IMG/VR virus record: IMGVR_UViG_3300042894_007411
DNA length: 64,000 nt
Origin: a virus
Lineage: Duplodnaviria > Heunggongvirae > Uroviricota > Caudoviricetes
Strand: one strand, 5' to 3'
Shown here: one piece after another, positions 383 through 31,102 of the stretch
Position numbering within the stretch: position 1 is the first letter of the stretch
How the letters are laid out: each line of letters opens with the position of its first letter
Made by a program: the position numbers and the translations under genes
Notes under the pieces: generated by a model
Database searches by the model: none
Seen by the model: the letters and a program-made list of their open reading frames with translations, nothing else
Told to the model about the DNA's origin: nothing

Positions 383-622
383 CTAATATACAAGTTGTAG
401 GTAATGCCTTGAAAACCATTCCTCAAATTTCAATGCTTTGTCAGGAACATCTTTAATATCAGTATCCACACTTCTATTTTTGTATTGTTCCATATCAAAC
501 ATTCTACCATTACTCCACGCCTTTCTAAGATGTTCCTTGAAAAAGGCACTACTCATAACAGCAGATATAAGCAATTGCTCATCGCTGTTATTAAGTTTTT
601 GTTGTTTATTATCATTCTTCAT
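383..622 (-). CDS. hypothetical phage protein, N-terminus runs through an attC-like half-site
   Basis: 79-aa ORF co-oriented with neighbours; SAVMSS is encoded by the reverse complement of ACTCATAACAGC. Confidence 0.7.
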   Translation of the reverse strand: MKNDNKQQKLNNSDEQLLISAVMSSAFFKEHLRKAWSNGRMFDMEQYKNRSVDTDIKDVPDKALKFEEWFSRHYLQLVY

Positions 623-695
623 ATTATCAAATTTTGTCTGTTAATTAAAAGAGCAACTGCTCATATCTGCAAACCGTTTTAGCTAATAAAATTTA

Positions 696-911
696 CTACG
701 CCTTTACCCATTTTTTACCATTGTGTTTTAATTCTACAACTTGTTTTAATTTCGTTTGTTCATCGTATGCTTCAACATTACTACTGTCTAAAGGGTGTTC
801 ACCCCATCTGCTGTAAGTAAGTTGTTGTTCCCACAATTCTCTTGCCTGTTTTTCGTCCTTTGCCATTATTACAACTTCTGCTTTAATAATGAATTTTTTA
901 ATTGTTTTCAT
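696..911 (-). CDS. hypothetical phage protein
   Basis: 71-aa ORF, ATG start, in leftward gene run. Confidence 0.75.
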   Translation of the reverse strand: MKTIKKFIIKAEVVIMAKDEKQARELWEQQLTYSRWGEHPLDSSNVEAYDEQTKLKQVVELKHNGKKWVKA

Positions 912-952
912 AATCCGTAAATTTTCAAATCTTACCTACACTAATATACAAG

Positions 953-1330
953 TTAGCGGTCAGCTTTAGACAGTTCACTTTTCAGCCACTCTTTACGCCA
1001 ATTAAGACAGTAGTTAATGGCATCTTCAAGTTTCTTAAACTCTTTACTATGCGGTAATTCCATAAACATTGAAATATCGTGAACATTACACACATCGTGT
1101 TTAGTTCTTGGACACACCCACCAATGAGTTTTTTTGTATTTAGTATAATCTTTGTTATCAGGTGGACAACCATCTAACCCACAAATAACATCAAAAGGCA
1201 TAAAGATACCTTTCCAAACAACTTCCCAGCATCCACTACCTTCTGAATAGTTTTTGGGAGTTTTCAATGACCAAGCCGAACCGCTAACACGGGTTTGGCA
1301 AAATGGCTGTTCAGTAATTCTATTTGACAT
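953..1330 (-). CDS. hypothetical protein in attC-like cassette
   Basis: Likely start MSNRIT at 1330; cassette bounded by GTTAGCGGT (952-960) and ACCGCTAAC (1280-1288); stop codon lies inside the GTTA box. Confidence 0.75.
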   Translation of the reverse strand: MSNRITEQPFCQTRVSGSAWSLKTPKNYSEGSGCWEVVWKGIFMPFDVICGLDGCPPDNKDYTKYKKTHWWVCPRTKHDVCNVHDISMFMELPHSKEFKKLEDAINYCLNWRKEWLKSELSKADR

Positions 1331-4293: not shown

Positions 4294-4367
4294 TGATTCC
4301 ACTAGGACTCGAACCTAGGACCTACAAATTATGAGTTTGCAGCTCTAACCAACTGAGCTATGGAATC
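4294..4367 (-). tRNA. tRNA with CAU anticodon (Ile2 or elongator Met)
   Basis: Full cloverleaf GATTCCA / GCTC-AGTTGGTTA-GAGC / GCAAA-CTCATAA-TTTGT / CTAGG-TTCGAGT-CCTAG / TGGAATC-A. Confidence 0.92.
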
Positions 4368-4674
4368 TTTGGGTAAATTCTGTTTACGGTTTGTAGGGGT
4401 TTGTAAACAAAATTATGGTGGGTTGTTTAATTCATTTTTTTGATTTCCTCTATTAACTGAATAAACATGGATTTTGTTATATGTTCTTGTTTAACCCACA
4501 TATAAATTATGCCCATCCTTTCATGGTAATCTTTTTTAGTTTGTAATTTTTCAATGAGTTCCTTTATCATTTAACTATTTGTTTTTTCTTCTTTTGACCC
4601 GCCCGCGTTCGACGTATGTTAGTAATATACTATGTTAAAAAGTAACACCTAGCCGTTGTCTGTTTCGGAACGTG

Positions 4675-4772
4675 TAGTCAGGACAGGATTCGAACCTGCA
4701 CACCTCAGTGTTTTATAGTTCATCAACTATGCGTTTCCCAAATGATATGTCTACCAATTTCGCCACCTGACT
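4675..4772 (-). ncRNA. tRNA-like element E1 (AGTCAGG family, 98 nt)
   Basis: Acceptor AGTCAGG/CCTGACT-A, Leu-type D-arm start, T-arm GCAGG-TTCGAAT-CCTGT, no canonical anticodon arm. Confidence 0.75.
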
Positions 4773-4875
4773 ATTTGTTTAACGATACGGTATTACATTA
4801 TTTTCAATACACCATAAGTAATACTCTCTGTTGTCAATGTAATAATCTTTCATTGTTTCTATTTTTAATTGTTAG

Positions 4876-5007
4876 TAGTCAGGACAGGACTCGAACCTGT
4901 GCCTTGAGACTGACCCCTTGCTGACCTTTAGGTATCCACATCCTACCAGACTTGATGTGATATTTCTTTATCTGGGGAGCTGCTCTAACCAACTGAGCTA
5001 CCTGACT
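4876..5007 (-). ncRNA. tRNA-like element E2 (132 nt)
   Basis: Same acceptor and T-arm; class I D-arm TAGCTCAGTTGGTTAGAGC; about 80-nt unrelated core. Confidence 0.75.
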
Positions 5008-5012
5008 GTGTT

Positions 5013-5210
5013 TTATTCCTCAATATATGTCCACTTTTTAATATCTTTCTCATCACAATAATCATCATATGATGGAAGATACCACTCACCATTTTTATAA
5101 TAACACACCTCAAACTTTGGTGTGTTTTTTAATGATGTCCGAATCAAAACCCAACTATTATCTTTGGGAGGTATTTTGTCTTTTTTGAAATCTATCCAAT
5201 TCATATCCAT
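5013..5210 (-). CDS. small phage protein, DUF551-like
   Basis: MNWIDFKKDKIPP...VLI...YYKNGEW...IKKWTYI pattern. Confidence 0.65.
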   Translation of the reverse strand: MDMNWIDFKKDKIPPKDNSWVLIRTSLKNTPKFEVCYYKNGEWYLPSYDDYCDEKDIKKWTYIEE

Positions 5211-5212
5211 AC

Positions 5213-5419
5213 TTAAGAATTAAACAATCTTTTATATTCACTTTCACAAGTATCTCGTTTGTTTAATGGGTGAACGTCATTCCACTCACCTATATCAACA
5301 CATTTGACATCTTTTACCTTGGGGTAAATGTAACTAGTGTTTTCAATTAATTGTGTAATTTCTTGTTCACCGACATTTTTTATATCAATAACCAGTAATT
5401 CTACTTTATATGCTTTCAT
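5213..5419 (-). CDS. hypothetical protein
   Basis: 68-aa ORF between tRNA-like elements. Confidence 0.75.
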   Translation of the reverse strand: MKAYKVELLVIDIKNVGEQEITQLIENTSYIYPKVKDVKCVDIGEWNDVHPLNKRDTCESEYKRLFNS

Positions 5420-5433
5420 ATTTTTATTTTTAG

Positions 5434-5566
5434 CAGTCAGGACAGGATTCGAACCTGTGGTGCAAGTTATTAGGTGAAGTAATACTCTTCATTCATCAGA
5501 CTGAGCTGAACCTCTCATTACCTTGCCGACTTGTAGTAGTTGCGTCTGCCATTCCGCCACATGACT
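5434..5566 (-). ncRNA. tRNA-like element E3 (133 nt)
   Basis: AGTCATG-TGGCGGAATGGCAGACGC ... ACAGGTTCGAATCCTGT-CCTGACT-G. Confidence 0.75.
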
Positions 5567-5696
5567 ATTTTATTTTTTTATGCTGTCAACATTCTTATTA
5601 CAACACCTAACAATACTGAGTAAATCATTGCGGTAATTGCAAAACCAATCATTATACCATCAAAATATGTTTTTTCCTTTTTCATAACTTTAAATT

Positions 5697-5906
5697 TTAG
5701 GATTTCTGTCTTATCCAAACCTCACCACATTTTTCACACTCTTGTCGGTCTTTAAAATTTCGTACATCATGCTCGCAAACCGATTTCATAACAGCAGATT
5801 GGCGTAATACTTTGGCATACTCATCGGCAAAGTTAAGTGCCATTTCTAAAGTCCAGTGTCTCGTTTCAATCATTCGAGTTGATTTGTAATATTCTTTTGC
5901 TGTCAT
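5697..5906 (-). CDS. hypothetical protein, C-terminal CxxC-type Zn-ribbon-like motif
   Basis: CEH...CEKCG; internal SAVMKS from a TAAC half-site. Confidence 0.7.
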   Translation of the reverse strand: MTAKEYYKSTRMIETRHWTLEMALNFADEYAKVLRQSAVMKSVCEHDVRNFKDRQECEKCGEVWIRQKS

Positions 5907-6095
5907 AACCTTTATTTATGAACTGTGAGGTATTGACTTATCCTTTTGAATTACTTCTAGTGTATCTAGCTGTTCTTTCAAAGATTTAAGTTCTGTGTGA
6001 CAAATTAATAACTGCCTTTCCTTTTCTTTAATATGCAATTTTACATCGTAAATTGCTTTCTCAATTTTATTCATTGTGTTAATTAAAAATTTTAG

Positions 6096-6189
6096 TAGTC
6101 AGACAGGGTTCGAACCTGTATGTCAGCTTTACATTTCGTTGACTGACCGCACCTTGAAGCGAGCGTCTATCCAATTCCGCCACTTGACT
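6096..6189 (-). ncRNA. tRNA-like element E4, degenerate Leu(CAA)-like (94 nt)
   Basis: Leu-type D-arm, CGC-TTCAAGGT-GCG short anticodon hairpin, long variable hairpin GTCAG...CTGAC, acceptor stem one base short. Confidence 0.7.
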
Positions 6190-6195
6190 ATTTAT

Positions 6196-6411
6196 TTAAG
6201 TAAGCAAATCCCCACACTTTAGTATATCCCCAACCATTTTCTTGGTACCATTTTCATCAGTAATAGAATTTAGTTGATAGTGTTTTCCACTGTTGATTGC
6301 ATCAGCAGTTAAAAGGAATAATGCTTGGATAAATCCATTACAATAAGCAGTCAATTCATATGTGTGTCCATTACTGCTTTTAAATAAGCCTATGTACTTG
6401 TTATGTTTCAC
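6196..6411 (-). CDS. hypothetical protein
   Basis: 71-aa ORF downstream of an N25 promoter. Confidence 0.75.
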   Translation of the reverse strand: MKHNKYIGLFKSSNGHTYELTAYCNGFIQALFLLTADAINSGKHYQLNSITDENGTKKMVGDILKCGDLLT

Positions 6412-6543
6412 TGTATTTATTTTATTAAGACAAATATACTATTGAAATGAGATTAGAAAAAATGAAACCCCAGGCCAAAAGACCTGGGGCTTGAAAGGGA
6501 CCCAACCACAGATCCCTTTCGGGAGGGGGACTTTGGACTCCTA

Positions 6544-6894
6544 TTAGTCTTCCCCCTCCTGGTCCATTTCTTTTTTACGTTCAAGACCCCCAAACAAACC
6601 CCCCATCATTTTCTGAATTTCTTCTCGTTTGTTTTCGAATCCTGCGTGGATTTTTCCAACAAAATAACCTGCCAGAAGAAGTTTCTTTTCGTAACGTGTT
6701 AGGGAACCAGGAACATCCAGTTCCTCGGAACGAACAAAGTTACCACAGTCAAGAATGGTGTCAGAAACTGAATCACATTTCTTAAAGGAATTCACACATT
6801 CCTTAGCCAATGAATCGAAACAGGAATCTGATAAACTGAGACCTCCGGAGATAGTTTTTGGGTAGAATGGTGCGTCATGCGGATGATTTGACAT
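6544..6894 (-). CDS. hypothetical protein
   Basis: 116-aa ORF downstream of an N25 promoter. Confidence 0.75.
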   Translation of the reverse strand: MSNHPHDAPFYPKTISGGLSLSDSCFDSLAKECVNSFKKCDSVSDTILDCGNFVRSEELDVPGSLTRYEKKLLLAGYFVGKIHAGFENKREEIQKMMGGLFGGLERKKEMDQEGED

Positions 6895-6994
6895 AAAATA
6901 AGGGTTTAAAGGTTAATGATGTAAAGGTAAGATAAAATTTAGTGAAAAAAAAATGGAACCCCGATTTTATAAAATAAATTTGAAATTGTTTTAG

Positions 6995-7081
6995 TAGTCA
7001 GGACAGGATTCGAACCTGTGTTCAGGGACTCAAAGTAAGTAACCCTCTGAGTTTGAATGGCAATCTTTTCGCCACCTGACT
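6995..7081 (-). ncRNA. tRNA-like element E5 (87 nt)
   Basis: Perfect AGTCAGG/CCTGACT acceptor and ACAGG-TTCGAAT-CCTGT T-arm; eroded D-arm. Confidence 0.7.
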
Positions 7082-7145
7082 ATTTGTAATTTTGGCTTTT
7101 CATTTAGTATCCACAGAGCCCAAATTACTAAAATGAACTGTGCTG

Positions 7146-7267
7146 TAGTCAGGACAGGATTCGAACCTGTGACATTGCAACCCTTATACTTCCCGCGTCC
7201 TAATGATTATGAACCGTGTTGTTTTCGGGATGTGATAAACCTCTTTCACATTACGCAATACCTGACT
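7146..7267 (-). ncRNA. tRNA-like element E6 (122 nt)
   Basis: Perfect acceptor and T-arm; core unrelated to the other copies. Confidence 0.7.
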
Positions 7268-7481
7268 ATGTTTCCCCACCCTGAGATTTGGGGTGAGTAG
7301 TCATTCTGGTTTTTTCCTATTGATAAAACCTACAGGGCATCCCCTATTAAAACAGTCACACTACGAAGGAGGGGCTGTGAGTGGCACCTTTAGCCCTAAG
7401 AACCGGCATTCCGCTGTCCGATTTAAGCGAGTCCATTGTTTAAGTCTTGAACCAAAGACTCTGAGTATCTCTTACTCATTG

Positions 7482-7602
7482 CAGTCAGGACAGGACTCGA
7501 ACCCGTGGAGAACGGCTTGATAGTTTCTGCGCGAGGGCTACTTAATTCGCCACCCCTCAATCCTTGTTCTCAATTACGCTGCGGAACCACCGCCACCTGA
7601 CT
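7482..7602 (-). ncRNA. tRNA-like element E7 (121 nt)
   Basis: AGTCAGG-TGGCGG ... ACGGGTTCGAGTCCTGT-CCTGACT-G. Confidence 0.7.
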
Positions 7603-7763
7603 ATATTTAAAGTAACCCAACTCAGAGGGGTATTTGTTACATTATCACAGCTTTTGCAAAGTACTCTGGTTAATTACTCCGTCTGTACCCAACTGCTTTA
7701 TGTTGGCTTATAGCTGGCTATTTTAATGCAACTCACAACTTTATTTGTTGGAATTACTTTTTG

Positions 7764-7844
7764 TAGTCAGGGCAGGACTCGAACCTGCGGGAACTGTTTT
7801 GCCACGTAGGACTTATGTAGGCTCCACCATTTTGCCACCTGACT
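7764..7844 (-). ncRNA. tRNA-like element E8 (81 nt)
   Basis: AGTCAGG ... GCAGG-TTCGAGT-CCTGC-CCTGACT-A with a compensatory pair change in the T-stem. Confidence 0.7.
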
Positions 7845-8016
7845 GTGTGTACCGTTCCTATCTACTTTATGAACATACGGTACCAGATGCTTCATCATGA
7901 CCTTCGGATAGGTAAGTTTTGAGGATGAGAAGACCTCTGTGTTGTAAGTTGCCTACCATAAATGGTATCCTTTAGCATCTACTCAAGCAATTCCTTTCTC
8001 AAGGGAACAACACTAG

Positions 8017-8137
8017 CAGTAAGGACAGGCTTCGAACCTGTAAGGTCTCCATGACAGAGCCTATGGTGTGATTACGCTCACTCATCTTAGGGATGCGAAC
8101 CCATTCCAATACCGTTTACCAATTTCGGCACCTAACT
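8017..8137 (-). ncRNA. tRNA-like element E9 (121 nt)
   Basis: AGTTAGG-TGCCGAAATTGGTAAACGG ... ACAGGTTCGAAGCCTGT-CCTTACT-G. Confidence 0.65.
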
Positions 8138-8649
8138 AAAAAAGAAGGTTCTGGATCGTACCTGGACCAATCAGGAGAACCTTCAAATTGTATATAAAAG
8201 GTCATTTATAATCCTACCTATATTTCCAAGATCCTTTGGAATATAGTAACCATCCAAGGTAGGCCTATACTCTGGCACTCCGTCTGTACTTGTTGGCCTA
8301 ATCAATGTGTCATAGGTTTTCAGATACAGCGTTCAGTGTTACCCTCAGGACTTCTTCATCCTGCCCCCAAAGTTACGTGGGAACCTCACTTAGAAGTTTA
8401 AGTGTGTATCGTAGAATTGTCCAGTATTTCTACGACTTGTGGATTACAACACGACCAATTAAGGCCCCTTACCCTCTCAATCCATAATGAGGGACTCATT
8501 TATTCTCGTTCCCGACGTAACCTACTGAATACCTTCTGTGGTTATACGAATTTCACTTTTGTGTATCTTTCACCCATAGCCACGAAGACTTCCAGTCGTG
8601 GATCACACACCATAACGGATGAGTACTTCCGTTAATTGTGGGCTCTTTT
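8138..8649 (-). ncRNA. candidate large structured non-coding RNA
   Basis: No credible ORF; many hairpins (GAAGGTTCT/AGAACCTTC, CCTACC...GGTAGG enclosing a TTCCAA/TTGGAA stem, TCGTAGAA/TTCTACGA, CCACGA/TCGTGG, AACGGA/TCCGTT); strand assumed from the flanking RNA genes. Confidence 0.45.
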
Positions 8650-8746
8650 GTTGATTAATAAGGATTCGAACCTTAATCCTCCAGCCCTGTAGCGTTTCGT
8701 GTTCCCGAACCTACCGGGGCCAGTGTGCCCATTACACTATAATCAA
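8650..8746 (-). ncRNA. tRNA-like RNA with a structured insert replacing the anticodon loop
   Basis: TTGATTA/TAATCAA acceptor, GTGT/ACAC D-stem, GGCCC/GGGCT anticodon stem enclosing 29 nt, TAAGG-TTCGAAT-CCTTA T-arm. Confidence 0.7.
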
Positions 8747-9014
8747 TCGAGAGTTTCGAACCTCTCAGGTACCAAGGTAATTAATCTTGGACTTTGCAAT
8801 CGGTGTGAGAATCGAACTCACTCAAAAGGACGGTTCCTTTATCAGTTACACAAAGTAATTACTCCTTGCTTTACCTGCCGTGTAACGTTTTGTGGCCACT
8901 CCGCGTTACCAAATGTCAACCAAAGACATACCAATTCCGCTGTCTTCCCAGCTGTGTGGGTTTAGTATTGACTTACCCGTCAATGACGAGCTCTTGCCCC
9001 AAACCAAGGCTAGG

Positions 9015-9110
9015 TAGTCAGGACAGGAATCGAACCTGTGAGTATAGGATTAGCGCTTAGCCTATACACATCTTATTTCTAGAGTGCGTCTACCACTCCG
9101 CCACCTGACC
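9015..9110 (-). ncRNA. tRNA-like element E10 (96 nt)
   Basis: GGTCAGG-TG-GCG-GAGTGGTAGA-CGC, long variable hairpin GTATAGG...CCTATAC, ACAGG-TTCGATT-CCTGT-CCTGACT-A. Confidence 0.75.
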
Positions 9111-20717: not shown

Positions 20718-20914
20718 ACGTGATGGGTTTAAAGGGTGGAAGAAATAAAATTGACAAGGCAAATATACGATGGTTTGATTGATAAAAAAAACAAATTTAC
20801 CAAAAATGCCATTAAAAAATAAAAAAAAATTTATTAATGGACTTAACTTGTTGTAAATGAACAACTTAAGAAAACCAGCAAATTAAATTTTTTTTCTGTG
20901 CCTACGACAAACAA

Positions 20915-21223
20915 TTATAATAGTTGAATTTCCTTTTTTACATCTAACCAAAATTGGTAGTTACCGAACTCCTCTTTTAATTTTCCGTTTTCTTCCAAGT
21001 AATTCACTATTGGCTCAAATTCAATAGCACTATCTCCAAAAGCTTTTCGCCATTGAGCAACGGTCACCATTTGGTTATCTTCCATTCCGTCAATTCTAAA
21101 AAATCCATAGTGAGCATCTAACCACTTGCCCTCTACAACATGACCACTTAAGTTTGTGAATTTGAATTTAAGTGAGTTAAATCCTTTTTCTTTAGCATAT
21201 TCTTGTAGTTCTAAAATTCTCAT
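20915..21223 (-). CDS. hypothetical protein
   Basis: Start MRILEL at 21223. Confidence 0.75.
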   Translation of the reverse strand: MRILELQEYAKEKGFNSLKFKFTNLSGHVVEGKWLDAHYGFFRIDGMEDNQMVTVAQWRKAFGDSAIEFEPIVNYLEENGKLKEEFGNYQFWLDVKKEIQLL

Positions 21224-21281
21224 TTTAATTGGGTTAGGGGTTGGGCGTGGATGAATGTGCGAGTTATCGGCAACCCTACGA

Positions 21282-21542
21282 CTACTCTGTAGCAAGTTTT
21301 ATAGCATTGACTAAAGGCATTACTCCTTCGCCTCCATTTTGAGAAAGCATAAATTCAGGATAACGACCTTCATCTGCCAATTTCTTAAATTGTTCTTTTG
21401 CCCATTCACAAGCAGCAAGTAATTCATCAGCTACTTTCTTATCTACATACTCGCCTGTTTGGTCATTTGGTTTACTTACTTTGTATCCTACAAATAATTG
21501 CGGGCTGTAAGTTAATTTTAAAGGTTCTTTACAATTGTTCAT
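21282..21542 (-). CDS. hypothetical protein in cassette
   Basis: 86 aa, entirely between the GTTATCGGC and GCCGATAAC cores. Confidence 0.75.
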   Translation of the reverse strand: MNNCKEPLKLTYSPQLFVGYKVSKPNDQTGEYVDKKVADELLAACEWAKEQFKKLADEGRYPEFMLSQNGGEGVMPLVNAIKLATE

Positions 21543-21650
21543 TTTATGTTTGTTTTTAAGTTAATAATTCCGAAAGAAGGGCAGCCGATAACAGCACCTA
21601 CCAAAAAGGTGGGGGTTGGGGGGTTAGACAAATATGCGAGTTATAAGCAA

Positions 21651-21839
21651 TTATTTTGCCTCAATACCATCCCAACAAGACTTACAGCAGTATCCATCAA
21701 ACTTTTTGTTGTTATGAAAGGTGTGACAGTTACGGCAAAATAACTGTCCGCTTCGCCTTATAACAACAGGTTTGTGAAATAAACCGCTTTCGATTTGTCC
21801 GTAAGTTGGTAGTGATTTGAATGTTCTGTTATTCTTCAT
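21651..21839 (-). CDS. small Cys-motif protein (CxxC...CCxxC) starting inside an attC loop
   Basis: ATG lies within the 21757-21887 hairpin. Confidence 0.6.
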   Translation of the reverse strand: MKNNRTFKSLPTYGQIESGLFHKPVVIRRSGQLFCRNCHTFHNNKKFDGYCCKSCWDGIEAK

Positions 21840-21887
21840 ATATTTCGTTGTTAAATGTTTACTTCACAAACCTGCAAACCGTTAGCA
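21757..21887 (+). repeat. complete attC-like site
   Basis: CTTATAAC-AA-CAGGTTTGTGAAATAAAC ... GTTTACTTCACAAACCTG-CAAACC-GTTAGCA: imperfect inverted repeat, asymmetric spacers. Confidence 0.75.
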
Positions 21888-21897
21888 GAAATAAAAA

Positions 21898-22053
21898 TTA
21901 CTCCTGCAATGCTTCCAACTCATATCGTACCAAAGCCATTTCGTCAATTGCTCTGATTTGTTCTTCAATCTTTTCACGTTCTTTAATCAATCTGATTATT
22001 TCTTCGTTGTCTGTTACTTTTGTCCAATCTATCATGTCAGTAATTTTTATCAT
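21898..22053 (-). CDS. small coiled-coil protein (51 aa, below ORF-track cutoff)
   Basis: MIKITDMIDWTKVTDNEEIIRLIKEREKIEEQIRAIDEMALVRYELEALQE. Confidence 0.6.
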   Translation of the reverse strand: MIKITDMIDWTKVTDNEEIIRLIKEREKIEEQIRAIDEMALVRYELEALQE

Positions 22054-22568
22054 TTGTGTTTAATTTTGTATTAGTGCGCTCTAAACAGAATTTACAATTC
22101 CCTTTGTGGGTTAATACTACCAATCAATTTCAATCGAATATTCACCTGCTTCAATTAAACCTCTTTTATAAAGGTCATTTGCAACAGTATGTATGTCTGG
22201 ATAAAAATTTCTATCCCACCATAACTTAATACCATAGTCGGTTCTACCAGCAACAGGTTCATTAGGGTCACGTTCTAACCACTTTTCAAATTTTACACCC
22301 ATAGTTTTACCATTTATTATTTCAGGTATTTCATCATTCATTTCATCATCACGAGTGTATTCACTTGGTATTGTAAGATGGAATATTCCCCTTGACCAAC
22401 AACCATTTTGTTGTTGAAAACTATACGGCTTACCGTAAGTGTCTGAAACTAATTTATTCCAATCACTCACTTCAATCATTTTTACATTTTTAATTTTTAT
22501 CATTTGTGTTTAATTTTGTATTAGTGCGCTCTAAACAGAATTTACAATTCCCTTTGTGGGTTAATACT
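22041..22568. repeat. 78-bp exact direct repeat (22041-22118 and 22491-22568) flanking one gene
   Basis: TAATTTTTATCAT...GGGTTAATACT read identically twice. Confidence 0.9.
22117..22503 (-). CDS. conserved hypothetical phage protein (W..NFYP motif)
   Basis: 128 aa. Confidence 0.8.
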   Translation of the reverse strand: MIKIKNVKMIEVSDWNKLVSDTYGKPYSFQQQNGCWSRGIFHLTIPSEYTRDDEMNDEIPEIINGKTMGVKFEKWLERDPNEPVAGRTDYGIKLWWDRNFYPDIHTVANDLYKRGLIEAGEYSIEIDW

Positions 22569-22735
22569 GTTTGGTTACCCCAATCGCCAAGTAAATACTC
22601 GCAACTATCTACCTCTACTATTATTAATGGGTCTTTGTCTTTTCTTACCACAAAGCCGGATGTGTTTACTTCGCGGCAACCGCAAGAAAGAATAGTCATT
22701 AGTAGTGTACTGATAAAGGGGAATGTTGGTTTCAT
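22490..22735 (-). CDS. putative small lipoprotein
   Basis: Start MKPTFP; hydrophobic stretch then LSCGC; VDSCEYL...LTHKGNC. Confidence 0.7.
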   Translation of the reverse strand: MKPTFPFISTLLMTILSCGCREVNTSGFVVRKDKDPLIIVEVDSCEYLLGDWGNQTVLTHKGNCKFCLERTNTKLNTNDKN

Positions 22736-22890
22736 AAGGTGAAATAAGCAATAAGACACAAGATGGCAAGCACAACGAATAGTGCCAAAAAAACAGGTAA
22801 GCACCCGTATTCTTCAATCATGTGACCGATGGCGTTTAACTGGGATAGAATCATGGGTTTAGGGGTTTGGGGGTTAGACAAATATGCGAG

Positions 22891-23124
22891 TTATACGCAA
22901 CCTTGACGAAAAACAATCAACTGACTGCGACATTCTTCATAAAGCCCATAATCATAGTCATCTCCTTTTCTTGATTTGTTTAAAAAGAAATCTACTGCGA
23001 CTATTCCACTTTCAATTGCTAATAATCTATGGGCTTTCATATCACCCACTCCAAATTGTGCTATTAAAAAACTATCAATCAATGATTGTGCTATTTCTTT
23101 TGCGTGTTCTGTTCTGTTGTACAT
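22891..23124 (-). CDS. hypothetical protein in cassette
   Basis: Stop codon inside the GTTA core. Confidence 0.7.
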   Translation of the reverse strand: MYNRTEHAKEIAQSLIDSFLIAQFGVGDMKAHRLLAIESGIVAVDFFLNKSRKGDDYDYGLYEECRSQLIVFRQGCV

Positions 23125-23235
23125 ATTTATTTTGTTTTAAAATTATAATCAAAAAGGCTGCTTATAACAGCAGTTTGGCAAGATGTGGGGGTTGGGGGAA
23201 GGAAAACTGGACAAATAAAGGAGTTACCTGCAAGG

Positions 23236-23610
23236 CTACGAAACTGCATAGACAGACATTCCTATAATAACCAGAGCGTGTAACAATTGGTCAAATCCAA
23301 ACACAATCCAATGCCATTTATTAGCAGGTGATTGTAGTGAAGGAAACCAGCCATTCATTCTACCTTTCCAAACATCAATTATAAAGTGTGTTACCCATTG
23401 GAATATTACTAAGTAAGCCCAATCGTTTGTAAAGCCAATAAACCATCCTAAAACAAGCGACATTAACATAGTGTGCATTGCAGCGTGAATGAATATTGGA
23501 AACAATGGCTTTCCAAGTCGCTTTGCATTAAGCATCCAAGCATTTGATAAATGTGTGTAATCTGCTAAAAAATGGCAGATAAATAATCCGATTAAAATTT
23601 GTGTTTGCAT
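23236..23610 (-). CDS. DUF3307-like membrane protein
   Basis: HFLADY...H...HFIIDVWK...FGFDQLLH pattern. Confidence 0.8.
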   Translation of the reverse strand: MQTQILIGLFICHFLADYTHLSNAWMLNAKRLGKPLFPIFIHAAMHTMLMSLVLGWFIGFTNDWAYLVIFQWVTHFIIDVWKGRMNGWFPSLQSPANKWHWIVFGFDQLLHALVIIGMSVYAVS

Positions 23611-23672
23611 TTGTATTTTAAATTAAATCGTTTAGGGGTTGGACAAATAAACGAGTTAGTGATAATTAAAAA

Positions 23673-23921
23673 TCACAAAATTGTACAATTTTCAATTTCA
23701 TAAACCTTTGGATGTTTTTCTTTTAGTTTATTTATAGCATTTTCATAATTTTCAGCATAAATTAATTCATAACAAATTGGATATTCGTCACCAATACCTA
23801 AACTAAAAGAAAGTAAATAAATATTAACCTTTTGTGAATTTTGTGATTTTTCACTCTCCCTAACATCAGATATATTCAATTCCGAGTTTTCTTTAAAACT
23901 CTTAATTATGTTCTTTTCCAT
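23673..23921 (-). CDS. hypothetical protein in cassette
   Basis: SDVRES encoded across a core site. Confidence 0.7.
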   Translation of the reverse strand: MEKNIIKSFKENSELNISDVRESEKSQNSQKVNIYLLSFSLGIGDEYPICYELIYAENYENAINKLKEKHPKVYEIENCTIL

Positions 23922-23946
23922 ATTCTATATTTTTTATCATCAACCG

Positions 23947-24354
23947 TTATGAGAAATGTTTTGTCAAAGCATCCTCTAATATTTGTATAGCTGTTTCTAA
24001 TCCGCATTCCATCCCTTCTCTCCATTGTCCTTCACTATAATCTAATGGGGGTGATAATTGCCTACTACTTTCAAGTTGGCTTTGTAAATCTGCCAAAACA
24101 CTTCTCATAACATCAGGTTGTTGCAATGTGGTTTCGGTGGTATGTGTTACATCTTCCATTTTAAGAAATTTTTCGTATTTTTCTTCCGTCATTCCGATTG
24201 CTTGTCTTTCCCATTCATGTTCACCTTGTTCACCATAAATTTCATATTCAGTCATAGGAGATTTTTTAACATCATTGACCATAAAAATAAAAAAAGCAAT
24301 TCCTATTAAAAGGAGAACAACCAATCCAATAACTGCTAGTAATGTGATATCCAT
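23947..24354 (-). CDS. membrane-anchored protein fused across an attC core
   Basis: N-terminal TM; PDVMRS at 24102-24111; stop in GTTA. Confidence 0.75.
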   Translation of the reverse strand: MDITLLAVIGLVVLLLIGIAFFIFMVNDVKKSPMTEYEIYGEQGEHEWERQAIGMTEEKYEKFLKMEDVTHTTETTLQQPDVMRSVLADLQSQLESSRQLSPPLDYSEGQWREGMECGLETAIQILEDALTKHFS

Positions 24355-24499
24355 AAAATTTACTTAGTTTTATTTTCGTATTTGCGTTTGCAAATATACA
24401 AATAAGTTTCGAGATTTCCAAATCTTACCTACAAAAATACATCATATTCCTGGTGTGTGGATGAAGGGAAATTGGACAAATAAACGAGTTATAGCACAT

Positions 24500-24655
24500 T
24501 TAATTATCGCTTAACGACTGGCCGAAAACTATACAAGCTAAACATACAGGAAGATACCATTTCCAATTATCTGTTTGTGTTATCCAAAGCGATGATAAAA
24601 TCATCCCACTTGTGATTATTGCAACTGTGTTTAAAAATTTCTTTACTTTTTTCAT
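24500..24655 (-). CDS. small membrane protein (51 aa)
   Basis: MKKVKKFLNTVAIITSGMILSSLWITQTDNWKWYLPVCLACIVFGQSLSDN. Confidence 0.55.
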   Translation of the reverse strand: MKKVKKFLNTVAIITSGMILSSLWITQTDNWKWYLPVCLACIVFGQSLSDN

Positions 24656-24740
24656 CGTTTTAAAATTAACGCCTTATAACAGCAAATTTGGAAAATGTAA
24701 AAATTGGTTTCATGGGTTAGGGGTTGGGCGAATGTGCGAG

Positions 24741-24980
24741 TTAGGTGCAAGGCTCTGCCAACCATCCACCACAAGCAGACCAAACCACCCAACCACCATA
24801 AGCAACGTGCATACCGCCAAAAAACTTTGAAACAGATACAGACCAAGTGAAGTAACCTTCTTCAAGTGTTTGTCCTGTATCAAAATGTTTAAACTTATTA
24901 CCCAAATGTTTTTTGGCTCGTTCCAAGACAAAAGCCCTGCAACTAACACGGGTTTGGCAAGATTGAGGGGTTGGTTTCAT
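24741..24980 (-). CDS. hypothetical protein in cassette
   Basis: Starts in the attC-like repeat (QTRVSC), stop in GTTA. Confidence 0.6.
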   Translation of the reverse strand: MKPTPQSCQTRVSCRAFVLERAKKHLGNKFKHFDTGQTLEEGYFTWSVSVSKFFGGMHVAYGGWVVWSACGGWLAEPCT

Positions 24981-25039
24981 GGGTTAGGGGTTGGGGGTTG
25001 GGAAGGAAAACTGGACAAATAAACGAGTTATGTGCAATT

Positions 25040-25282
25040 TTAAGACACCCACTTATGACACCTTTTACAAGCGATTTCTTTTGGCTCGTTAGTGTCAGGC
25101 GTGTATTTCCTATGTCCTACAATTTTGCACCATAAAGGCAAAAAAGTATCTTCAAACATTAGTTTGCGCTGGTGTTTTATTACAGACCAAAAACGGTCAT
25201 AGTAATATTTTTTGTTGTCAGGATACTTTCTTGCTAATCGCAGTATCCAAAATAAATCGCAAGTTTCTCTTGATGTTGACAT
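25040..25282 (-). CDS. hypothetical protein (C..GH...CxRC motif)
   Basis: 80 aa. Confidence 0.7.
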   Translation of the reverse strand: MSTSRETCDLFWILRLARKYPDNKKYYYDRFWSVIKHQRKLMFEDTFLPLWCKIVGHRKYTPDTNEPKEIACKRCHKWVS

Positions 25283-25647: not shown

Positions 25648-25670
25648 AAGGATATGTGGGTTTAATTGTG

Positions 25671-25743
25671 TGATCCCGACTGGACTCGAACCAGTAACCT
25701 ACTGCTTAGAAGGCAGTTGCTCTATCCATTGAGCTACGGGACC
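25671..25743 (-). tRNA. tRNA-Arg(UCU)
   Basis: GGTCCCG-TA-GCTC-AATGGATA-GAGC-A-ACTGC-CTTCTAA-GCAGT-AGGTT-ACTGG-TTCGAGT-CCAGT-CGGGATC-A. Confidence 0.95.
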
Positions 25744-30996: not shown

Positions 30997-31102
30997 TTGG
31001 GTAAAGCGAGATTTATTTTAATTTTGGGGCCGGGGTTCTTTCGGTGTTCCCAATTTTGTCCCCCTCGACTTCGAATGACTGCGGTTGGGAATATATAAGG
31101 AC

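Follow-up and report, generated by a model that had tools for sequence, protein, structure and literature searches.

Antisense gene cassettes in a lake phage genome and their relation to an integron-like system of Bacteroidota

What kind of element is a row of small genes in a phage genome, each bounded by short complementary cores and all facing the same way, with no integrase beside them? The question is raised by positions 21231–25040 of a 64,000-nt stretch (the window) of IMG/VR virus record IMGVR_UViG_3300042894_007411, a Caudoviricetes record of 219,475 bp, 88% complete, whose DNA is present in lake and freshwater runs. Integrons comprise the integrase IntI, an attI site and attC cassettes (PMC8618304), and an earlier interpretation made from the letters alone (the sequence-only reading) took the row for an integron-like array in which the phage harvests or shuffles accessory genes through attC-type sites. 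Our analysis shows that the units belong, as cassettes, to an integron-like system of Bacteroidota and that eight of the junctions between them are copies of that system's attI-like site; the stretch itself is probably an integrase-less, largely decayed branch of the cassette system of Bacteroidota and their phages.

Cassette ends, attC hairpins and attI-like heads

The complementarity that the sequence-only reading saw between the two ends of one cassette is real. When cores are permuted among junctions, 0.69 of the nine window junctions are expected to pair at 8/9 or better, and four do so (a level reached in 0 of 2000 permutations); across the genome, 15 of 32 junctions attain it against 2.2 expected. 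The pair it had noticed near position 952 also holds, with ends at 952 and 1288 that match 9/9, while no matching R″ remains for three units, those after cores 21881, 23223 and 25027.

The attC sites have R″/R′ cores and a folding stem, as in integrons. Scored by a covariance model whose 50 attC-type training sites all come from other genomes, the hairpin that had been proposed at 21757–21887 reaches 77.6 bits (E 3e-16; 21757–21888, +; bottom-strand fold z −2.46), and a second intact attC at 552–683 reaches 68.4 bits. Compensatory changes are present in 15 of the 16 stem pairs of the 50 outside sites, which were chosen for complementarity and so are not an independent test. The default filters of cmsearch overlooked the short attC sites of locus L001, which a genome search with the model recovered. 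Shuffled controls had been named as the check on chance level, and an oriented hairpin scan of the arrays finds 11 hairpins on the + strand and 0 on the − strand, against 0.1 in shuffles; + is thus the attC top strand, as had been argued from the spacers, which measure 1–2 nt on the left against 5–6 nt on the right. Classical attC spacers are probably less asymmetric. The claim that cassettes are bounded by attC-type sites stands only in part, since just one of ten window junctions is an intact attC and eight are attI-like.

The same short motif precedes GTTA at these eight junctions, and 12 further copies lie at C1:26.5–39.1 kb, within a larger array beyond the window (C1:26500–39500; L001:4500–17500) that holds 12 attI heads, many intact attC sites among at least 10 attC hairpins, and about 35 small minus-strand open reading frames (ORFs). 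With another attI variant, carried by a third mini-array (window 394–1288) and by C1:45289, the copies number about 23, spread over three arrays. In bacteria, the attC family lies downstream of a 349-aa tyrosine recombinase; the first cassette core is found about 90–110 nt past the recombinase stop, and in nine of 16 cases its pairing with R″ of the following site is 9/9. Profiles were built only from 16 such chromosomal first-cassette junctions of Bacteroidota, over two non-overlapping intervals. Among 3103 GTTR sites, the −14..−1 profile places 16 phage copies at ranks 1–16 (it also exposed the three at C1:45289, window 394 and window 952) and the −62..−20 profile places the full heads at ranks 1–5, 8, 18, 21, 34 and 76, a result that amounts to one or two tests rather than twenty, the phage copies being mutually related. 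Because junction profiles from bacteria rank the phage copies at the top, and because both sets of heads show their peaks at the 43-nt direct repeat and, for the inverted repeat, at −52, the head motif is a homologue of the bacterial attI-like site. The homology also identifies + as the top strand independently of spacer asymmetry. An exact head pattern with two mismatches allowed stayed at chance level in five Bacteroidota genomes, so that the bacterial link is visible only through position and profiles, and a search for the head in cultured phages gave no real match. By its position and its homology to the first junctions beside the bacterial enzyme, the motif holds the place of attI at an array head, here in many copies.

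Two kinds of head can be distinguished. In full heads (window 24391–24491 and most copies of the large array) about 65 nt of attI adjoin a putative leftward promoter, and short heads have 10–25 nt of attI after a G-rich run; the consensus promoter was found in five full heads and in no short one. The G-rich run is the native gene leader of a small-phage family (52% GC), present also in that family's empty alleles. A G-quadruplex reading of these runs was considered and not adopted. A terminator-like site was sought at the heads and none was found (folding z 0.5 to −2.1); the idea that the head is the stump of an integrase gene was rejected for want of a match.

Several further observations concern the heads. 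Head loci carry up to 9 attI copies per contig; their attI:attC ratio of 65:31, against 50:221, is biased by locus selection and was not used. Other phages (L225, L226, L228) carry repeats of a second attI-like head that differs from the first, so attI amplification appears to have arisen more than once. The cassette at C1:45289 shares its first 20 nt with the cassette at C1:33379. Finally, an inverted attI core fused to R″ makes a perfect 22-bp palindrome (L077, L097, at the right end of the cassette matching C1:26871), and another inverted remnant lies at C1:32505–32535; such fusions are possibly products of wrong-way recombination.

As the sequence-only reading held, every ORF of the window array is on the minus strand and several stop in a core: three do so (22891, 23947, 24741), the others ending 11–20 nt from it, and for several the start lies within an attC arm. 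In L029, L045, L050, L051 and L025 a single attC left arm supplies one and the same N-terminal peptide, fused in frame to ORF bodies that are unrelated to each other, many of them DNA methyltransferases. Most window-cassette ORFs matched no family. The features are listed below, with R′–R″ matches out of nine between the ends of each cassette unless another pair is named.

21231–21266, +: G-rich leader and short attI variant, core 21263 (weak variant, rank 67 of 3103)
21263–21592, +: cassette 1, 9/9; antisense ORF 21282–21542, 86 aa
21593–21643, +: hybrid junction of truncated attC left arm, G-rich run and attI core (21640); left arm and G-run also in small phage L006
21640–21764, +: cassette 2, 8/9; antisense ORF 21651–21839, start inside attC loop
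21757–21888, +: intact attC-type hairpin, top strand +
21881–22854, −: three ORFs without matching R″ (21898–22053, 22117–22503, 22490–22804)
22041–22118 and 22491–22568: exact 78-bp duplication over two gene starts
22855–22893, +: G-rich leader and attI core (22890)
22890–23168, +: cassette, 8/9; antisense ORF 22891–23124, stop in core
23169–23226, +: hybrid junction of attC left arm, G-run and 25-nt attI (core 23223)
23236–23610, −: DUF3307 membrane-protein ORF (PF11750, phrog_2470), cassette without R″; 82% identical unit in small phage L247
23632–23658, +: G-run and attI core (23655)
23655–23864, +: cassette, 7/9 (9/9 in L009 and L015); ORF 23673–23921 runs through attC left arm
23946–24111, +: cassette after decayed attC, 9/9 within a contiguous 10-bp pair; ORF 23947–24354
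24391–24422, −: putative Bacteroidota-type promoter, by consensus match only (TTTG, 20 nt, TATATTTG), leftward, fused to full attI
24424–24491, +: full-length attI-like site with 43-nt direct repeat and inner inverted repeat (core 24488)
24488–24680, +: cassette, 6/9; ORF 24500–24655
24714–24743, +: G-rich leader and short attI variant (core 24740; rank 28 of 3103)
24740–25004, +: cassette, 8/9 (24740/24947), with truncated attC arm and G-rich leader; ORF 24741–24980
25001–25030, +: 25-nt attI (core 25027), then ORF 25040–25282 (−)
394–1288, +: third mini-array, with attI-variant cores 394 and 952, intact attC 552–683 and cassette 952–1288

Elsewhere in the window, a lone cassette remnant lies at 5697–5906, its attC left arm read into an ORF start. 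An Rfam search of the sequence returned tRNAs only: tRNA-Met, tRNA-Arg and four weak tRNA-like matches were seen at 4294–9110 and 25670–25743, and the end of the array lies about 600 nt short of tRNA-Arg. Paralogous genes whose 21-aa repeats have a period of 63 nt, about 12 or more in number, lie at 31085–58660. Syntenic relatives were sought via a flanking gene and none was found.

The likely enzyme and the traffic of cassettes

No integrase had been noticed near the array, and neither PF00589, nor TIGR02249, nor a relative of the system's recombinase was found anywhere in the 88%-complete record (weak tblastn matches, E 0.03 or worse, were ignored). The bacterial enzyme scores 219 and 206 bits, under the IntI cut-off of 265, and it also falls short of the cut-offs for XerC and XerD. 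In the PDB it matches archaeal XerA best, and it has no counterpart of about 42 residues of the VchIntIA insertion, residues 247–268 corresponding to 176–239 of VchIntIA (2a3v). The enzyme of the system is thus likely a Xer-like relative without the IntI insertion rather than IntI, and of the sources that the sequence-only reading considered, an enzyme acting in trans or homologous recombination is supported while a host IntI is not. Matching attC types occur in Flavobacterium, Chitinophagales and related genomes, and the promoters fit TTTG / TAnnTTTG, the Bacteroidota consensus, from which we infer a Bacteroidota host for the phage.

Some other phages encode the enzyme themselves. A relative of about 265 aa is found in 195 viral stretches, many of them adjoining arrays; the gene points away from an array whose attC sites are intact, and a short attI, usually a single one, lies 36–52 nt from the start of the gene. 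The present genome differs from these phages in that no enzyme was found, attI copies are many and attC sites are mostly half sites. The left arm of the phage-type attI (L161, L165, upstream of the recombinase) may resemble the XerC arm of dif. Near phage recombinases, 146 of 153 classifiable cassettes are antisense and 7 sense; bacterial cassettes are mostly sense, with 5 sense and 2 antisense beside the enzyme. Some bacterial arrays mix phage-type antisense cassettes with sense ones (L041:4700–5000 reverse, L051), which suggests two-way exchange of cassettes between bacteria and phages.

It had been predicted that gains and losses of genes in other phages would coincide with the cores, and window cassettes that recur elsewhere do break exactly at G|TT. 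Window 24740–25004 is 98% identical over 265 nt to the small phage L241, the similarity beginning at the core, and the cassette follows an attI variant in the window and a full attC in L241; such identity in an unrelated phage points to recent traffic. The same switch of left flank is seen at the 23946 cassette, which follows a decayed attC here and comes directly after attI in L093, at the cassette shared by C1:27463 and L013 (attC in one, attI in the other), and at C1:36894, where the left flank is attI here but attC in L186, a phage that encodes the enzyme itself. Cassette 1 also stands behind other sites in L225–L228, L230 and L231 and is a plain operon gene in L229. In the 52% GC family of small phages, that of L241, one locus has 14 empty alleles (a single leader, no attI) and at least nine different fillings, composed of leader, attI, one or two cassettes and second leader; attI plus cassette, as whole units, come and go between the G-rich leader repeats of these related phages. 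Among cultured phages, Flavobacterium phage mumin6-1 has eight sites on + and all genes on −; mumin6-3 and mumin6-4 are without a 506-bp unit of mumin6-1, cut within 7 bp across the core, and no recombinase was found in these phages. Since this unit includes the attC at its right, the polarity of the system is confirmed.

Mobility at the cores is thus evident, yet shuffling through attC-type sites, as first proposed, holds only in part, because most window cassettes no longer have the right arm on which excision as attC circles depends, and because no ongoing shuffling was seen in four lake populations. Read joints listed in lake runs have short sides and fit repeats; those in runs X11 and X13 suggest strains without, or moving, 20911–22528.

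How might such an array work? A Xer-like recombinase of the host or of a co-infecting phage would load cassettes at any attI copy and excise those that retain an intact attC, and homologous recombination between repeated attI heads or leaders could copy and trade whole units. Leftward phage promoters would read the genes, often starting inside an attC arm, hence their backward facing; the right attC arm could then disappear, which would fix the gene. A cassette newly entering attI would be last in the leftward transcript, the reverse of classical integrons, and the repeated promoter and attI would keep each row of cassettes short.

Competing explanations

Several points weigh against reading the stretch as a branch of this system. 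The missing 12% of the genome could encode a recombinase; a close relative of the enzyme is present in only 16 of 151 sampled genomes; and the array appears unchanged, with no joint at a core, in the contigs of four lake runs, contigs being a form of data that drops rare variants. The phage heads are non-independent samples, and attI is assigned by position and homology, not from binding. Recombination is here known from comparing sequences alone, and the host by inference.

The main rival would keep only part of the story: the repeats would now be mere patches of homology and expression signals, comparable to the promoter(early) stem-loop (PeSL) cassettes of other phages, with attI ancestry as a relic and every present exchange made through homologous recombination by phage enzymes. 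It draws on the 69–99% identity of the heads over 100 nt, on the empty alleles that have no attI and the inserts bounded by a G-rich leader repeat, and on the single intact attC of the window array in a record where no recombinase was found. Against it, left flanks switch between attC and attI exactly at the core, which head homology cannot produce; the 14 nt before the core are invariant in 13 copies while positions upstream drift; and the heads have no terminator. We regard this rival as unlikely, though it has the best standing of the alternatives.

More improbable is that a recombinase of the phage lies in the unassembled 12%, which would make this a phage integron, complete and with several attI sites. 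The record is incomplete and the 195 viral stretches show that phages can carry a relative of the enzyme, many beside arrays, but in such phages the gene starts about 36–52 nt from a single attI of the shorter type, whereas all three arrays here have complete flanks without the gene, and heads of bacterial type; moreover, PF00589 matches nothing in a complete member of the small-phage family that has two such sites.

An ordinary cluster of attC sites lacking an integrase (CALIN), with cassettes taken from a classical IntI integron and now inert, is largely refuted and very improbable. Lytic phages are known to carry CALINs whose attC sites are functional with IntI1 (PMC9892861), and the array looks static in four populations; yet the matching bacterial sites adjoin a recombinase under the IntI cut-off that is without the insertion residues, the genes are uniformly antisense, and the nearly identical unit in L241 argues against an inert array. 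That assembly chimeras at repeats made the array or its swaps is scarcely credible, for although the record's data are all metagenomic and the heads are repeats, contigs of independent runs cross the junctions with few differences, most shared repeats are just 14–30 nt, and cultured phages have the same layout with exact cassette differences.

Relation to known systems and significance

The likeness to integrons is extensive: the cores are GTTR, the two ends of a cassette are complementary, the stems of the hairpins covary, the first junction is attI-like and has accessory repeats, and units come and go exactly at G|TT. There are also differences. No intI gene was found in the 88%-complete record, the recombinase being absent from it, and the bacterial enzyme has no IntI-specific insertion; there are about 23 attI copies in place of one; and the genes are antisense, often start in attC and would be expressed from far-end promoters, where integron ORFs are mostly sense and read from the promoter Pc near attI. 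The system works like an integron yet lacks two of its defining properties, and is a variant rather than a member.

Phage CALINs were described by Qi et al. 2023 (PMC9892861), mostly in the typical orientation and with no repeated attI described; they share with the present array attC-bounded genes in a phage without integrase. Two or more neighbouring attC without intI are found, by our own model, in the C1:27–37 kb array, while 21231–25040 has one intact attC, and Polaribacter phage P12002L, a phage of that study, gave no match to the attC model. The PeSL cassettes of the T4-type phages RB49 and phi1 (Arbiol et al. 2010, PMC2839356) resemble the array in that a repeated, promoter-bearing element splits a variable region; their modules are traded between the repeats, as is probable here too. 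In the present array the full form of the repeat bears a consensus promoter, and the repeat is homologous to a bacterial recombination site and without a terminator, and exchanges also occur at a fixed core. XerC, XerD and XerA are of the same size and fold family as the system's enzyme, which differs in falling below the XerC and XerD cut-offs and in lying beside cassette arrays with hairpin sites, not dif. A literature search that left out most subscription papers turned up no account of the Bacteroidota system, nor of phage cassettes that are uniformly antisense or of an attI that is repeated, and integrons go unmentioned in the Muminvirus paper.

A wider picture may be drawn tentatively, with slightly more doubt than conviction: a sister system of integrons, with a Xer-like enzyme without the IntI insertion, would supply a pool common to Bacteroidota and their phages; the docking site itself would be mobile, amplified and traded between jumbo and small phages; and phages without a recombinase would keep many active entry points, filled by the host enzyme with backward-facing, phage-adapted genes.

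If true, these findings would extend hairpin-based cassette recombination to an enzyme without the insertion held essential (PMC8138268) and would explain why surveys of Bacteroidota found few complete integrons (PMC9024848). The cassettes of cultured Muminvirus phages carry methyltransferases, and Nilsson et al. linked the lack of one methyltransferase to lower plating efficiency (PMC7077304); these phages and their hosts make the system testable. The window gene that is both a cassette and a plain operon gene gives a handle on how cassettes originate or become fixed, and the system, if true, would provide a concrete route for the traffic of accessory genes between unrelated lytic phages.

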